Below, one piece after another: positions 57,084 to 64,000 of a stretch of DNA of 64,000 nucleotides. The stretch lies in contig JAZOQY010000057.1 in the NCBI GenBank assembly GCA_045656285.1, forward strand, positions 1,845-65,844, read 5' to 3'. The stretch comes from Kiritimatiellia bacterium (GTDB lineage: Bacteria > Verrucomicrobiota > Kiritimatiellia > RFP12 > UBA1067). How positions within the stretch are numbered: position 1 is the first letter of the stretch; each line of letters opens with the position of its first letter. The position numbers were made by a program, and so were the translations under genes. The notes under the pieces are model-generated. The model was not told the DNA's origin. It saw only the letters and a program-made list of their open reading frames with translations, and ran no database searches.

Positions 57084-57126
57084 AATCTGATAATACGATA
57101 CAAATAGGAGTATTTCCCTTAACCGC

Positions 57127-59961
<2,835 letters not shown>

Positions 59962-59972
59962 TTATTTATTCT

Positions 59973-60001
59973 ATTATATCATTAAGAAACCCTCATGGCT
60001 A
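59973..60001 (-). promoter_or_regulatory. promoter TAGCCA-17-TGATATAAT for lacZ; the -35 is the terminal unit of CTAG block 1
   Basis: Minus strand: TAGCCA (60001-59996), 17-nt spacer, TATAAT (59978-59973) preceded by TGA. 26 nt to the ATG at 59946. Confidence 0.5.
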
Positions 60002-60335
60002 GTGGTAGAGAGGAACTAGATAGGCTAGAGTGTCTAGATGGGCTAGAGCCCTAGATTTCTAGAAATGCTAGACTTACTAGATGGACTAGAAGTTCTAGAT
60101 AATCTAGATAGTCGTTAGTCGCTAGTCGCTCTAGCCCCTCTAACCAATCTAGCCCGTCTAGTCTAGCCCCTCTAGCCCATCTAGCCTATCTAGGCTCCCC
60201 CTCGCTCCTAGCCCATCTAGCGCCTCTAGCCCATCTAGGCTCCCCCTCGCTCCTAGCTAATCTAGCGCCTCTAGCCAATCTAGCCTAGCCCCTAACTCCT
60301 AGTCCCTAGCCCCTCTCCCCCTAGCCTCGCCTTCA
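59997..60335. repeat. CTAG-dense block 1: two opposed arrays of a 9-bp unit (GGCTAGAn / nTCTAGCCC) around a TAGTCGY heptamer hinge
   Basis: I read 32 CTAG in about 325 bp, mostly spaced 9 bp apart. In the left arm CTAG is followed by A. In the right arm it is preceded by T and followed by C. A perfect palindrome ATTTCTAGAAAT lies at 60055-60066. Confidence 0.9.
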
Positions 60336-60972
60336 GCGCGGCGATCTCGCGCTTAAGCGAGGCGTTTTCGGCTTTCAGCGCGGCGATTTCTTCGTTTTGG
60401 GTCTTGCGCCGCCCTAAGCGCGCGGCGGTCATCCGCTCTCGAATACCGCCGTTTTCAGTAAAATCGGTTTCTTTGTTTTTAAGATGAGTGGCTATCATCT
60501 TATCAACCATATGACAAAGTGTATTGGCGCAATTAGCGAGCTCTTCGTCGGTCCACTTCTCGAAAAAAGGCTCATATTCTTCAAGCTTATTGCGCTGACG
60601 GCAAAACTTCAAAAGCCCGTCGTAACGCGGATGCTTTTTATCCCAGAGAACGAGCGAGCGCGAGCGAATATAATCAAGATAATCCTCTTTAAGTTCTTTA
60701 AGGCTCGCGCGGGCGACATTAAGAAGTTTAAGTTCCATTTCGGTCGAAGTAACGCCGTCAGCGCAGCCTTCAACGATGTTCTGCTTACCGCTACGCGCAG
60801 CCTGAATCATCTGATCGACGGTACGATCGCCATGACGAGGCAAAAAGCGCTTACAGAAAACATAAGTCATCTGATAAAGAACAACAGTCTTCTGATAGAA
60901 GAAGAGCTTCTCCCAGTTAGTCTGATCTCTAAGGATTTTAACCGGCTCTTTAGTAGGCTCATGTGGTTTCAT
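60292..60972 (-). CDS. four-helix-bundle protein (23S rRNA-IVS / Avd-like family) with suffix domain and C-terminal coiled coil
   Basis: NWEKLFFYQKTVVLYQMTYVFCKRF...DQMIQAARSGKQNIVEGC...LLNVARASLKELKEDYLDYI matches my memory of four-helix-bundle plus suffix-domain proteins. The C-terminus carries EEIAALKAENASLKREIAALKARL heptads. The last ~12 codons and the stop lie inside block 1. Confidence 0.7.
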   Translation of the reverse strand: MKPHEPTKEPVKILRDQTNWEKLFFYQKTVVLYQMTYVFCKRFLPRHGDRTVDQMIQAARSGKQNIVEGCADGVTSTEMELKLLNVARASLKELKEDYLDYIRSRSLVLWDKKHPRYDGLLKFCRQRNKLEEYEPFFEKWTDEELANCANTLCHMVDKMIATHLKNKETDFTENGGIRERMTAARLGRRKTQNEEIAALKAENASLKREIAALKARLGGEGLGTRS

Positions 60973-60981
60973 AGCAGTAAC

Positions 60982-61010
60982 ATTATAGCACTAAGCAAAG
61001 CCTCTGGCTA
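60982..61010 (-). promoter_or_regulatory. promoter TAGCCA-17-TGCTATAAT for the four-helix-bundle gene; the -35 is the terminal unit of CTAG block 2
   Basis: Minus strand: TAGCCA (61010-61005), 17-nt spacer, TATAAT (60987-60982) preceded by TGC. Only 9 nt to the ATG at 60972. Confidence 0.5.
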
Positions 61011-61320
61011 GAGAAAATCTAGAGAGTCGCTAGATGGGCTAGAGGGTCTAGATGAGCTAGAGTAGCTAGAGGGTCTAGAGCTCTAGATTTCTAGAAACGC
61101 TAGATAGGCTAGAGGTTCTAGACAATCTAGATAGTCGCTAGTCGTTAGCGGTTAGTCGTTAGTCTAGACTATCTAGCCCGTCTAGTCTAGCCCATCTAGC
61201 GCCTCTAGTTAATCTAGCCTAGCCCTTCTAGCCAATCTAGCCCCTCTAGCCCATCTAGTCTAGCGCTTCTAGCCTATCTAGCCCGTCTAGGCTCCCCCTC
61301 GCCTCTAGCCCCCGCCCTCG
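61006..61320. repeat. CTAG-dense block 2, homologous to block 1 (same arm/hinge/arm layout)
   Basis: I read 32 CTAG in about 300 bp, again phased at 9 bp. It shares long stretches with block 1: ctagatttctagaaa(t/c)gctaga, atctagatagtcg, atctagcccgtctagtctagccc, ctaggctccccctcgc. Confidence 0.9.
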
Positions 61321-61325
61321 CAACT

Positions 61326-61351
61326 AAAAAAGGCCCGGGTTGCCCCGAGCC
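61326..61351 (-). terminator. Rho-independent terminator after the surface-protein gene
   Basis: Minus-strand RNA forms GGCUCGGG-GCAA-CCCGGGCC followed by UUUUUU, about 30 nt after the stop at 61381. A T-run also follows on the plus strand. Confidence 0.75.
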
Positions 61352-61380
61352 TTTTAGTTCATCTAACCGCAATTCTGCGA

Positions 61381-64000
61381 TTATTCAGCGGACGTCGGCT
61401 GGCTCGCAGCTATCGGAGCGAAATCGACGAGAACGCGATAGAACGCTGCATCACCGATCGCAGGAGCGTTAAGCCCTGTCGTTACCGTAGCTTCGTCCGT
61501 ATCAACCTTATCGACAGCCGCTGCCGAGCGAACCGCGTAGTAAAGGCCAGGAAGCTCAGTCTCGAGCGCGACCGTTACATTGCCGTTCTCATCGAAGCTA
61601 ATGGCAGTAATCTCAGGCGTGACAACCGCTGGATTAAGCGCGACAGTTACCGTATACTTTCTTGTCGACTCATTAAGTGTAGCCGTCTTGGTGAAGTATG
61701 TAGCGTATGTCGCAGCATCAACGTCGGTTACACCCTCCGGAATAAGGATTTCAACCTTAGCCGCAGCCGCAGCCGCATCAGTAGCCGAAACCTCAATCGA
61801 ACCACTCGGCTCAATCGCCGGCTTCTCGACTACGGTGTAGAAGCCGTCAACAGGGCCTGTAATCTCATATCCTTCGGCTACGAACTTATCATTAGGCTTA
61901 GTTACATATTGGCCGCCAGTCAAAAGAAGAGAGCCTGTTGTTGTGCCGCCTGTTAAAGTTTGTTCTTCAACACAAATGTTTGAAACACTGATAGTTGCGC
62001 CATCATAAAACTCAAAGCCAAACCAGGCAGTAGAACTCTTAATTGTACCGCCCAAAAATTCAGCCCTAGCACCTCCCGCAACAGCGATTACAGCCGCGGA
62101 CTCACTCCCATTGTAGTCACCAGACTTCTGAAACACGCCATCGAGAACTTTAACCGCACCAGCCTTAACATTTAACAACCTATAGGTAGAAGCTTTATTG
62201 TGCACTACCGTATATTCTCCACCATCAATCTCAACATATGCACCATTATGCATACGAATACCATGATAATGCGTAGTGAGATTTACATTTACCAATTTAA
62301 GACTTATATTCTTAACAAGAATAGCTCCTTTATTACCTTCTGAGGCCACTGGAGTTTCGCAATAAATATTACCATTTTCAATAATGAAATCTGCTGAATT
62401 TTCATTTGCGAAATAAGCTAAAACACCACCATTAAGCGTCTTGCCGCCAAGGTCAATCGTGCCATTGAAGCCAGCAGGAATGGTGATATTCTCTGTCGTA
62501 TCCTTAATAAGCGTAACCTCAACACCAGCCGTTGTGCCCGCAGCCGTAAGAGCTTCCTGAAGCGTCTCATACTCCGTCTCGCCAATCTTAGCGACATTAT
62601 TCGAGACAGGGATTAGAGCTACAGTCCAGTAGCCATCTTCGCCTTCAGTAGCGGTATAGCCATCAGCGCACCATGTTGTTACATTATCATCTGTATTAAC
62701 AGCGGCAGGATTGAAGTCCTTGAACGTACCACCCTTGACAACAAAAGTGCCGGGTTCATCATTGCGGCTGTTCAATGTCCAACGAGGCGTCTGGCAAATG
62801 AACGTACCGCCGTTGATTTCGACAGAGCCACCATTTCTAACATAAATAAGGTCGAAGTGGGCTCCGTCTTCTTCGGACGTAGCACCTACGTTCGTATAAG
62901 TACCGCCATTGATAGTAACCTTACCACCATCTTTAGCCCAGACAGCCATGCACCAGTCATTCAAACCGAACGCATTAACCGTACCTTCGCCTTCGAGGGT
63001 GAGGTCGCCGCCAGCGACAACATAGAACACACCGTTACCTTCTGTATCATTGGTAGCAGCAATTGTCTTCCCGCCAAGGTTAACCGTCACCTTCTTGTTA
63101 ACGGTAATCGGGCCATCCGTAACAATATCAGCGATTACGGTAACAGTAGCACCAGCATTTGCAGCATTAACAGCAGCCTGAAGCGTCTGATACTTCGTTT
63201 CGCCAACCTGAGCCACAGGAGTTGCCGCGGTTACATCAGGTGTTGTGATTTCAGCACCGTTTTCACCAGAGTTGACCGTATAATCCTTAGAGGTCGAACC
63301 GTCAGCAAAAACCTTACCATCATCAGCCTTAAGAGTGAGTGTCACATCCGTGTTAGGATCAACAGCGATGGTGCCAGCTTCAACCACATTGCCATTTGCA
63401 TCATACCACTTAGTATTCGCAGGCGCCGCAGGAATCGTCACATTGACCTTCGCCACAGCGAGCTTGATGGTGTTGCCATCAACGACGTACTTGAGACCAG
63501 TAGGAGCGGTCGGCAAGGATGGCACGATGTCTGCGGCATTGTTGCAAGCGATGACCGTTTCGCCAGCTTCATCAGCGTGGGTGATGGTCAATGCACCAGC
63601 AACAGTAACATTGCCATTAACCGTCACCGGTCCCGCGAGGGTCGCGCCATCAGCGAGGGTAAATGTATTGACTCCTGAAATCGTACCTGAACCAGAAAGT
63701 GTGGACGTTTTGATTACAACAGGCTTTCGACCTTGACCACTTGGAACTCCATTAACCGTGCCATTAACTTCAAGGGCATTAAGTGTAATATCGTACTGAT
63801 TGCCCCAAGTTTTCAAGGTCAATGTATTTCCAGCAGCAACAATCAAGGTGCCCGTGAAACGGGAAAGGCCCGATGTAAAACCGGAATCACCAGTATTGCC
63901 AATCATTGCATTGGCATTAATCACAATCTTACCGGCGCCTGCGAATCCGCGATACAACTCTCCCGAGGATTGAATTTCGAGTTCGCCATTTACAGTAATG
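61381..64000 (-). CDS. large beta-helix / autotransporter-associated-repeat surface protein; its 5' end runs off the window
   Basis: The frame stays open to base 64000 (the M at 63957 in the track is a TTG). Gly/Thr/Asn/Val-rich beta-strand repeats. Two similar modules: VGETKYQTLQAAVNAANAGATVTVIADI and IGETEYETLQEALTAAGTTAGVEVTLIKDT. Confidence 0.7.
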   Translation of the reverse strand, partial: ITVNGELEIQSSGELYRGFAGAGKIVINANAMIGNTGDSGFTSGLSRFTGTLIVAAGNTLTLKTWGNQYDITLNALEVNGTVNGVPSGQGRKPVVIKTSTLSGSGTISGVNTFTLADGATLAGPVTVNGNVTVAGALTITHADEAGETVIACNNAADIVPSLPTAPTGLKYVVDGNTIKLAVAKVNVTIPAAPANTKWYDANGNVVEAGTIAVDPNTDVTLTLKADDGKVFADGSTSKDYTVNSGENGAEITTPDVTAATPVAQVGETKYQTLQAAVNAANAGATVTVIADIVTDGPITVNKKVTVNLGGKTIAATNDTEGNGVFYVVAGGDLTLEGEGTVNAFGLNDWCMAVWAKDGGKVTINGGTYTNVGATSEEDGAHFDLIYVRNGGSVEINGGTFICQTPRWTLNSRNDEPGTFVVKGGTFKDFNPAAVNTDDNVTTWCADGYTATEGEDGYWTVALIPVSNNVAKIGETEYETLQEALTAAGTTAGVEVTLIKDTTENITIPAGFNGTIDLGGKTLNGGVLAYFANENSADFIIENGNIYCETPVASEGNKGAILVKNISLKLVNVNLTTHYHGIRMHNGAYVEIDGGEYTVVHNKASTYRLLNVKAGAVKVLDGVFQKSGDYNGSESAAVIAVAGGARAEFLGGTIKSSTAWFGFEFYDGATISVSNICVEEQTLTGGTTTGSLLLTGGQYVTKPNDKFVAEGYEITGPVDGFYTVVEKPAIEPSGSIEVSATDAAAAAAKVEILIPEGVTDVDAATYATYFTKTATLNESTRKYTVTVALNPAVVTPEITAISFDENGNVTVALETELPGLYYAVRSAAAVDKVDTDEATVTTGLNAPAIGDAAFYRVLVDFAPIAASQPTSAE

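Follow-up and report, generated by a model that had tools for sequence, protein, structure and literature searches.

A four-helix-bundle gene and its CTA/TAG-core repeat arrays as a candidate insertable unit in Kiritimatiellae and Bacteroidales

Why does a single gene lie between two long, self-complementary repeats that have no further copy in the surrounding DNA? The question is raised by a 64-kb stretch of DNA (hereafter the window) from an uncultured Kiritimatiellae bacterium of the ruminant gut, in which a gene for a four-helix-bundle protein sits between two repeat blocks of ~340 bp. We examined the locus with repeat tools and by reading the open reading frames (ORFs) of positions 59700-61700. 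Relatives were collected by scanning one genome per species, which yielded 445, and the best 80 loci, from 79 assemblies, were analysed (L-numbers below are labels of compared loci or contigs). This set comprised Kiritimatiellae/Verrucomicrobia and many Bacteroidales, the latter at 53-71% protein identity. The reading we favour, at a probability of roughly 45%, is that 59973-61386 is a self-contained, horizontally spreading single-gene cassette whose arrays are tandem binding sites for its own oligomeric protein.

The blocks, at ~59973-60330 (block 1) and ~60982-61316 (block 2), are direct repeats of 335-358 bp with ~80% identical aligned columns from a G-rich start through a -10 box. Each is an imperfect palindrome of 9-bp units, and every unit contains CTAG. 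Read in the sense of the gene, a block runs from a G-rich arm of CTAGRNGGG units through a centre of 7-bp repeats to an arm of CTAGNNNNT units, and closes with a promoter-like module, CTAGCCA-N17-TGnTATAAT, which is the end common to both blocks. The G-rich arm also holds an 18-bp motif, CTAGAGGCGAGGGGGAGC, and block 1 adds a 45-bp higher-order repeat. In block 2, the centre forms a non-palindromic hinge separating the arms. The unit order of the proximal arm was kept in all Kiritimatiellae copies; in the distal arm of block 2, both number and order of units differed among relatives.

The composition of the blocks is as distinctive as their layout. Of the 75 CTAG sites in the window, 63 fall inside the blocks and just 12 in the remaining ~62.7 kb, where ~118 would be expected. 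Shuffling of the whole window with dinucleotide content preserved gave ~120 sites. CTAG is ~10-fold avoided in this genome and ~50-fold concentrated in the blocks, an enrichment against the shuffles that is not due to chance. The flanks of the 80 related loci were likewise CTAG-poor (0-0.7 per kb).

An initial annotation, made from the letters of this DNA, had described two direct-repeat palindromic blocks around exactly one gene, and both the repeat tools and the ORF reading agreed. Its other local observations also stood. The enclosed ORF is a four-helix-bundle gene by its domain scores and structure matches (see below), and by coordinates its last ~12 codons and stop fall inside block 1. 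A terminator-like hairpin was found behind the surface-protein gene (61330-61346), and a promoter-like site was found for lacZ beside block 1 (60001-59973). No integrase is adjacent, the window neighbours being an adhesin-like surface-protein gene, lacZ, and a tRNA ligase gene. Finally, the 57-64 kb segment is lower in GC (45-52% vs mostly 55-63% in 11-57 kb).

The same annotation had taken block-gene-block to be one discrete unit between unrelated genes, and a second genomic context confirmed this. In L014, a metagenome-assembled genome (MAG) from yak caecum, the locus was syntenic with the window (adhesin, unit, lacZ). In most other close relatives, the unit lay between a large surface-protein gene and an operon of AMP-binding, 2-hydroxyacid dehydrogenase, and TsaE genes; this AMP-binding cluster is absent from the window. 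The unit in this second context measured ~1.4 kb and shared 82-89% DNA identity with the window. Homology set in at 61386, at the upstream stop codon, and took in terminator, block 2, promoter, and gene. It broke off where block 1 starts in loci of the L001 type and ran to the end of block 1 in those of the L005 type. Such sharp edges of homology, together with the differing neighbours, argue for a discrete unit. The 5′ border sequence, with a terminator-like stem at 61330-61346 in the signal scan, recurred in L001, L005, L014, L215, and L218. Loci of the L001 type are without the downstream block, and CTAGGGGCTAGGG is retained there, immediately ahead of the following gene's native promoter. 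We read this one-block form as the product of a deletion that removed the palindrome, and it does not look like an ancestral state. The L001 type was present in many samples, with no apparent harm from the loss.

Arrays and gene were associated throughout the 80 loci. Repeats of 9-10 bp with a CTA/TAG core lay directly beside the gene in 67-76 of the 80. When only CTAG clusters were counted, 37 of 80 loci had one within ~100 bp of the gene, and 4 clusters occurred elsewhere in 612 kb. Loci that seemed to have no arrays showed the same 9-10-bp period with other cores, namely CTATAG, GATAGA/TCTATC, and GCCTA (GCCTAW). A motif-independent detector, which required some 4-mer to recur five or more times in steps of 8-10 bp, picked up gene-adjacent arrays at 67 of 80 loci. 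There were 93 such arrays in ~64 kb; the remaining ~490 kb held 26, only ~8 of them with a TAG core. Permissive settings of Tandem Repeats Finder (TRF) raised the count to 76 of 80. TAG-core-type arrays were ~90 times rarer elsewhere in the 80 loci than beside the gene. Arrays of this kind stood almost always beside genes of the family. The double inverted-arm layout of the window was also present in Bacteroidales L033, L037, and L046, there built of GATAGA/TCTATC.

Comparison of the repeat units revealed a common theme. The conserved array 4-mers (CTAG, ATAG, CTAT, TCTA, TATA, and GCCT) are variations on CTA/TAG. Over 306 CTAG units the consensus was CTAG-A-N3-T, which amounts to a TCTAGA palindrome with 3 bp added. 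Each array flavour went with one protein clade, be it TCTAGA, ACTAGT, CCTAGG (period 10), GCTAGC, or CTATAG. In several clades the hexamer was still palindromic despite changed outer bases. The Kiritimatiellae hexamer is asymmetric (GCTAGA), and complementarity there comes from the inverted arm. On this comparison, the arrays follow the gene lineage, not the host site; period and core are conserved across two phyla, and the spacers drift.

Repeats of this kind could also be slippage-prone 9-bp minisatellites that hitch-hike with the gene and have no function. Unit number and spacers do change fast among close relatives, the ORF tail is set arbitrarily by the array, and the downstream block is dispensable in the L001 type. 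However, period and core persist in two phyla, down to 53% protein identity, and on both sides of the gene. The arrays are also the sole places that tolerate the otherwise avoided CTAG, and the unit order of the proximal arm is conserved. We regard neutral repeats as a very unlikely explanation.

Host contexts were diverse, and one of them offered a view of sites with and without the unit. In 7 of the 80 loci the gene lay between hsdS and hsdR, and an HsdR query taken from such loci retrieved 80 related type I operons from metagenomes. Two of these carried a close homologue of the gene (L234 and L241), and those two were the only array-bearing loci. A third, L294, had a distant homologue (41% identity) and no array. 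Empty sites were represented by L236, in which the hsdS stop is followed by 7 nt and the hsdR start, and by L240, with an 80-nt gap. Neither contained gene or array. Gene and arrays are therefore gained or lost together, and this joint presence and absence supports cassette-like behaviour.

These operons had further features of their own. CTAG clusters inside hsdS were discarded as candidates, being unrelated 12-bp coding repeats: the central region of hsdS contains 3-4 copies of CTAGAAGC(A/G)GAG, which encode (LEAE)n (L263 3762-3798, L303 3782-3824, L307 2710-2764, and L310 3771-3813). These repeats are length-variable and coding, and unrelated to the nonamer arrays. In the occupied operons L073, L075, and L078, the hsdS frame runs past its usual ...LLTFE* end into the insert. 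In the same operons the hsdR start gains ATGACA or ATGATG, which resembles the start of the inserted gene (ATGACAG...).

The restriction context suggests a different role for the arrays, as a dense methyltransferase or endonuclease target that switches neighbouring promoters. CTAG is depleted ~10-fold outside the arrays, 7 of 80 cassettes lie within type I restriction-modification (R-M) operons, and in Leptospira CTAG N4-methylcytosine (4mC) methylation regulates a promoter. Against this, the arrays of many clades have the same layout without CTAG (CTATAG, TCTATC, or GCCTA), and no methyltransferase is consistently linked to the cassette. An epigenetic or restriction target is highly improbable.

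How far, and by what route, does the unit move? A Kiritimatiellae copy and a Bacteroidaceae copy shared 71% protein identity, and such identity across phyla points to horizontal transfer. These comparisons show that gene and arrays travel as one unit, one that sits in unrelated contexts and is present or absent in related operons. The many homologues on ~1-kb contigs suggested a multi-copy transposon, which we rejected after context look-ups showed the unit once in each genome, in a single context for each lineage. Among 147 neighbouring genes of the 80 loci, there was no recurrent integrase or recombinase.

The initial annotation had gone further and likened the locus to an integron cassette. 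The cassette itself stood, with a discrete unit, a one-block form (L001), and hsdS-hsdR junctions with and without the gene; the integron-like mechanism was not supported. A circle carrying one block and recombining with a resident block disagrees with empty sites that are blockless, with the lack of a recurrent integrase, and with single-copy occurrence. A comparison of the blocks with attC sites also fails, as they are tandem 9-bp arrays with a period and CTA/TAG core conserved across phyla, and the unit has its own promoter. An empty site retaining one block was not found in relatives, and the empty hsdS/hsdR sites carry none.

More generally, the arrays or their folded palindromes might be substrates for insertion, excision, and swapping of modules, either by homologous recombination between linker-like arrays or by a site-specific or HUH-type enzyme that is encoded elsewhere and recognises folded single strands. 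In favour of this, the gene has direct repeats of 335-358 bp on its two sides, one-block and two-block forms exist, and the genes adjacent to arrays vary (surface proteins of 1124-2001 amino acids upstream, lacZ or the AMP-binding gene downstream). Tandem layouts in L035, L093, and phages, and solo arrays found mainly within a few kb of cassettes, fit as well. In contrast, the empty hsdS/hsdR sites are without an array, no recurrent recombinase lies beside the cassette, each genome has one copy, and no target-site duplication was seen, a feature not examined rigorously. Vertical inheritance, moreover, has left the arrays conserved, as would be expected of a standing function. That the arrays are recombination sites strikes us as unlikely.

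If the arrays have a standing function, the protein encoded between them is the obvious partner to consider. It scored 36.7 bits with TIGR02436 (four helix bundle protein; cut-off 24) and 52.9 bits with TIGR04258 (four helix bundle suffix domain; cut-off 40), the latter over residues 142-190, C-terminal to the bundle. PF05635 (23S rRNA-intervening sequence protein) reached 31.7, just under its gathering score of 33.8, and is precomputed for all close homologues; source records name homologues 'four helix bundle suffix domain-containing protein'. The suffix-type subfamily comprises >7,500 sequence clusters from gut and rumen Bacteroidales and Kiritimatiellae. An AlphaFold2 (AF2) model of the monomer, of modest confidence (predicted local distance difference test, pLDDT, 66), placed the bundle helices at residues 24-43, 52-71, 77-104, and 142-173, followed by a GG hinge (175-176) and a single long C-terminal helix (177-219). 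The top Foldseek matches of this model were the S23p-family structures 2gsc (Xcc0516) and 2rld (BT_0352), at a probability of 0.97-1.0 and a TM-score (target) reaching 0.85. Published work describes 2gsc as a pentamer. Searches for known defence and phage families gave no match in PADLOC and nothing significant in PHROGs.

Two features follow the bundle. The first is an invariant suffix motif, F-x3-GG-I-x-E-R-M-x3-R-x3-R (also written GGI[KR]ERMxAAR.G.R), and the second is a coiled coil whose length varies. In the window protein, the suffix domain with its GGIRERMTAARLGRR motif is followed by three heptads, EIAALKAENASLKREIAALKA, in which positions a are I, N, and I and positions d are L. Designed parallel dimers have this pattern, and they were the best PDB sequence matches. 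A basic segment that runs on into a zipper resembles basic leucine zipper (bZIP) proteins in architecture. Strict bZIP membership was rejected: a profile of the C-terminal 51 residues matched mostly designed coiled coils, and bZIP proteins appeared at E 0.03-0.16. The end of the protein, GGEGLGTRS, is encoded by block 1. Because close homologues (96-99% identical) vary in length, ending at 221 to 247 amino acids, this tail is a by-product of the array. Read-through or recoding of amber codons, an idea prompted by the recurrence of TAG every 9 nt, was also considered and rejected, with TAG as the gene's stop in 28 of 80 loci vs 36 of 145 neighbouring genes, and with TAGs past the stop spread over all three frames (164/145/104).

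Since PF05635 proteins are homologues of Avd, the gene could be a remnant of a diversity-generating retroelement (DGR), in which an Avd-like gene follows the gene of a variable surface protein. The upstream surface protein is indeed large and strain-variable. However, no reverse transcriptase was present among the called neighbours in the window and syntenic loci, and no repeat resembling a template or variable repeat (TR/VR) lay between the adhesin 3′ end and the cassette. Most family members, moreover, adjoin unrelated genes. A DGR remnant is close to refuted.

We next consider what the arrays might do for expression. Because the direct repeat extends through the -10 box, each repeat includes the promoter, directed at the four-helix-bundle gene in block 2 and at lacZ in block 1. 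The first hexamer of the gene promoter lies within the last CTAG unit, and its -10 box ~10 nt before the ATG. With these extended -10 promoters, the upstream block would drive the cassette gene and the downstream block lacZ. What is constant is the placing of the arrays around the ORF, with their ends 15-60 nt ahead of start codons; there is no fixed operator geometry. The upstream neighbour was co-oriented in 60 of 70 loci.

Self-complementary arrays might instead work as RNA. In such a case they would fold in the transcript, and cleavage by RNase III or a different RNase would free the cassette mRNA from host transcripts or insulate it from them; here each block would form a long hairpin, and elsewhere palindromic hexamers would pair within or between the 5′ and 3′ arrays. 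The precedent is close, since S23p ORFs of the same gene family sit within the intervening sequences (IVSs) of 23S rRNA in Leptospira and Coxiella, which have complementary borders and are excised by RNase III. The blocks fold strongly as single strands, at -75.8 kcal/mol (z -7.3) and -85.3 kcal/mol (z -9.2) vs shuffles. Across the gene, the block 2 proximal and block 1 distal arms are 88-96% complementary over 24-32 nt (I5, I7, and I19); each block is self-complementary too, with the promoter inside the would-be stem. Palindromic hexamers are kept in several clades, and many arrays are probably transcribed, no promoter being found between array and upstream gene in 22 of 44 loci. The phage arrays described below are intergenic, as are the RNase III sites that lie between genes in T7.

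Other observations speak against an RNA element. A promoter lies 3′ and a terminator 5′ of block 2, so that block 2 is probably not in the mRNA of the gene. The spacers of most Bacteroidales 5′ and 3′ arrays are non-complementary, which leaves only 6-bp helices with 3x3 loops, and the phage arrays (GCTAGA/ACTAGA, in one orientation) have just a 4-nt palindrome in common. Rfam returned no relevant RNA family and no rRNA in 59500-61800. We regard processing of this kind as unlikely.

Our preferred reading, in which the arrays are bound by the cassette's own protein, rests on four points: the protein is their only constant partner, it has a strictly conserved basic motif next to an oligomerisation helix, its superfamily includes the nucleic-acid-bound Avd, and array flavour follows protein clade. 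In the model we propose, the oligomeric protein would bind the arrays as tandem sites. The target could be duplex DNA bound by a dimer or transcribed UAG repeats bound by a ring; by analogy, a palindromic hexamer would suit a dimer on DNA, and a ring reading spaced triplets would suit RNA. In this Kiritimatiellae lineage, each array is doubled into two inverted arms and so makes up the ~340-bp imperfect palindrome. The complex of protein and array may mark and insulate the inserted gene and set its own expression, and may also affect the gene that starts 15-60 nt past the downstream array. Homology between arrays could occasionally let modules be captured or lost through recombination. A broader proposal, which we put forward tentatively, is that the suffix-type S23p/Avd-like protein and CTA/TAG nonamer arrays might form an unrecognised protein-array system. 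An oligomer would then read spaced TAG-core repeats on DNA or RNA that punctuate gene-sized modules in Bacteroidota, Kiritimatiellota, and some phages, and would control, insulate, or mobilise these modules.

Several observations weigh against the binding-site cassette. The resemblance to bZIP proteins is architectural only, the E values of 0.03-0.16 being driven by the zipper; the AF2 model has a pLDDT of 66, and binding itself is inferred. A dimeric zipper is also hard to reconcile with a pentameric S23p ring. The match of array flavour to protein clade is confounded by shared descent, with few independent events. The gene is single-copy per genome (80 loci in 79 assemblies). The position of the arrays relative to promoters is not fixed: among Bacteroidales loci, a promoter-like -7 box followed the array in 11, preceded it in 9, and was missing from 22. 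No empty adhesin-lacZ site was found, and the lacZ homologues in L228-L230 (94%, 85%, and 68% identity) sit in unrelated contexts.

Phages supply the remaining points on that side. In phage contigs (L127 648-9464, L136 264-5894, and L311-L314; IMG/VR, mostly sample 3300045988), heterogeneous CTAG nonamer arrays followed nearly every gene, and the four-helix-bundle suffix gene was found in neither IMG/VR nor INPHARED. Arrays can thus exist without a cis-encoded protein, and a factor may act on them in trans. The arrays contained >90% of the CTAG sites in these contigs and end in GGCTGGCGCGA, a motif also present in the Prevotella cassette L073. A scan of viral contigs for six CTAGs at 9-bp spacing was set aside, as it retrieved mostly trivial perfect 9-bp tandem repeats.

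In the cellular loci, solo arrays were few and mainly within a few kb of cassettes. Layouts of array-gene-array-gene-array occurred in L035 (2477-4737; major facilitator superfamily, MFS, transporter) and L093 (3005-4766; family 2 glycosyltransferase). In both, a housekeeping-type gene is bracketed by the same array and leader module as the neighbouring four-helix-bundle gene. Solo CTAG nonamer arrays in L016 (8109-8147) and L017 (4356-4395) stood immediately ahead of a Prim-Pol/AAA_25 gene, a type that is characteristic of mobile elements, ~2-4 kb downstream of a four-helix-bundle gene that is itself without arrays there. Other short-period intergenic arrays were seen near cassettes (L046 5481-6115, L079 7345-7381, L084 6942-6978, L087 6750-6810, and L089 7134-7170). 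They consist of AACCTYAT (8 bp, 5-8 copies) just before a start codon, or of GACCTTAAG (9 bp, 8-9 copies, two arrays).

The coordinates of the unit in the window are collected in Table 1.

Table 1. Features of the gene, its two blocks, and the 5′ border in the window.
Feature	Position	Strand	Description
5′ border	61317..61386	-	Surface-protein stop codon (61381-61383), short hairpin, intrinsic-terminator-like stem-loop and T-run
Block 2 distal arm	61164..61316	-	G-rich; CTAGRNGGG 9-bp units and CTAGAGGCGAGGGGGAGC
Block 2 centre	61132..61163	-	7-bp repeats, TAGTCGT on the + strand; TRF row 61132-61164, period 7
Block 2 proximal arm	61008..61131	-	9-bp CTAGNNNNT units: CTAGATTGT CTAGAACCT CTAGCCTAT CTAGCGTTT CTAGAAAT CTAGAGCT ...
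Promoter-like site, four-helix-bundle gene	60982..61010	-	TAGCCA-17-TGnTATAAT; present in all relatives
Four-helix-bundle gene	60292-60972	-	Sole ORF between the blocks; 226 amino acids
Block 1 distal arm	60131..60330	-	G-rich; 45-bp higher-order repeat (TRF 60130-60316, period 45)
Block 1 centre	60108..60130	-	7-bp repeats
Block 1 proximal arm	59999..60107	-	CTAGNNNNT units; conserved order, same as block 2
Second promoter-like module	59973..60001	-	TAGCCA-17-TGnTATAAT, ahead of lacZ (ATG 59946)

The genes around the unit showed variation of their own. The upstream surface-protein gene (window 61381-63957, - strand) encoded 1124, 1226, 1625, 1847, or 2001 amino acids among otherwise syntenic contigs (L001, L005, L214, L218, and L220), and all versions end in a similar [FY][FY][KR]V.V... 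motif. In this comparison, it looks like a hypervariable surface-protein locus beside the arrays. On the other side, lacZ (glycoside hydrolase family 2, GH2; window 57121-59949) shared 93% DNA identity with L228 over the ORF alone, both flanks being unrelated, and lacZ itself has therefore been relocated in these genomes. Extended -10 boxes (TGnTATAAT) were present ~10 nt before the ATG of the four-helix-bundle gene (60982-60972) and of the AMP-binding gene in relatives (L001 6700-6740), and also in the window region 59973-59946. This spacing suggests that leaderless or nearly leaderless mRNAs may be made in this lineage.

These results give a large S23p subfamily a concrete, testable cis partner, as it is almost always bracketed by phased TAG-core arrays, which contain nearly every CTAG site of genomes that elsewhere avoid the tetramer ~10-fold. 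They also define an insertable single-gene module, which lands inside operons, type I R-M operons among them, and brings promoters to its neighbours, here lacZ. The same type of array connects the module with a phage family. If the protein-array system is real, it would provide the first function for the 23S rRNA IVS protein family outside DGRs. There is a practical aspect as well: the arrays probably break metagenome assemblies, many homologues being found on ~1-kb contigs. The system is tractable because a cultured carrier exists, Prevotella nigrescens FDAARGOS_1486 (K8O81_RS09930 / WP_004367454.1), which has a CCTAG array after the stop. A full-text literature search found no description of these arrays for the suffix family, for PF05635, or for CTAG/TCTAGA/CTATAG repeats, and gene plus arrays as one insertable unit appears to be undescribed.

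How does the unit compare with systems that are known? The 23S rRNA IVS is regarded as a selfish element, and its S23p proteins have been known for ~30 years with function and mode of mobility unassigned. The two share a protein superfamily (PF05635/TIGR02436), a small single ORF with self-complementary borders, and a sporadic, horizontal distribution. Unlike an IVS, the window element lies between protein-coding genes and not in rRNA (helix 25 or 45). One 28-bp stem there contrasts with two-sided 9-bp arrays here, doubled into palindromes, and the window element has in addition a suffix domain, a coiled coil, and its own promoter.

Integron cassettes are likewise single genes with imperfect palindromes, discrete units found in several contexts, and ORFs that end at or in the repeat. 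Their attC sites are about 57-141 bp long. Here, in contrast, there is no IntI and no attI array, each locus has one cassette with its own promoter, and empty sites are without a copy of the site. The blocks, of 335-358 bp, lie on both sides of the gene, whereas one attC ends a usually promoterless ORF; attC core motifs were not searched.

MetJ, omega, and ParR are small oligomeric proteins that bind tandem repeats next to their own genes. The arrays resemble the met-boxes of MetJ, the omega heptads of pSM19035, and the ParR-parC system in having many short repeats at sub-helical-turn spacing, direct and inverted, beside the promoter of a small gene. As in such operators and iterons, the units are palindromic in some clades, and arrays stand beside the gene of the candidate binder in 67-76 of 80 loci. 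However, this candidate is a four-helix bundle with a coiled coil, not a ribbon-helix-helix protein, and the arrays occur on both sides of the gene with no fixed promoter geometry. TRAP and HutP are RNA-binding rings that read spaced UAG/GAG triplets. An analogy with them may be drawn from the regular spacing of TAG/CTA cores, the ring pentamers of S23p proteins, and the position of the arrays 15-60 nt before start codons. Their folds differ, as does the spacing (9 nt here vs 5-6 for TRAP and 7 for HutP). Avd, a basic four-helix-bundle protein in DGRs that acts in complex with nucleic acid and a partner enzyme, has a homologous fold; it has no suffix domain, and neither reverse transcriptase nor TR/VR was found here.

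Features of an insertion sequence (IS) or a miniature inverted-repeat transposable element (MITE) were also sought: there was no transposase, the 80 loci came from 79 assemblies, and no target-site duplication was seen in an examination that was not rigorous. The protein is a member of the TIGR02436/TIGR04258 family. The element, in contrast, lacks defining features of all the element types compared, and is neither a 23S IVS nor an integron cassette, neither a DGR nor an IS/MITE. In the way it works, it is most like an IVS-type selfish ORF with complementary borders joined to an iteron-like array.

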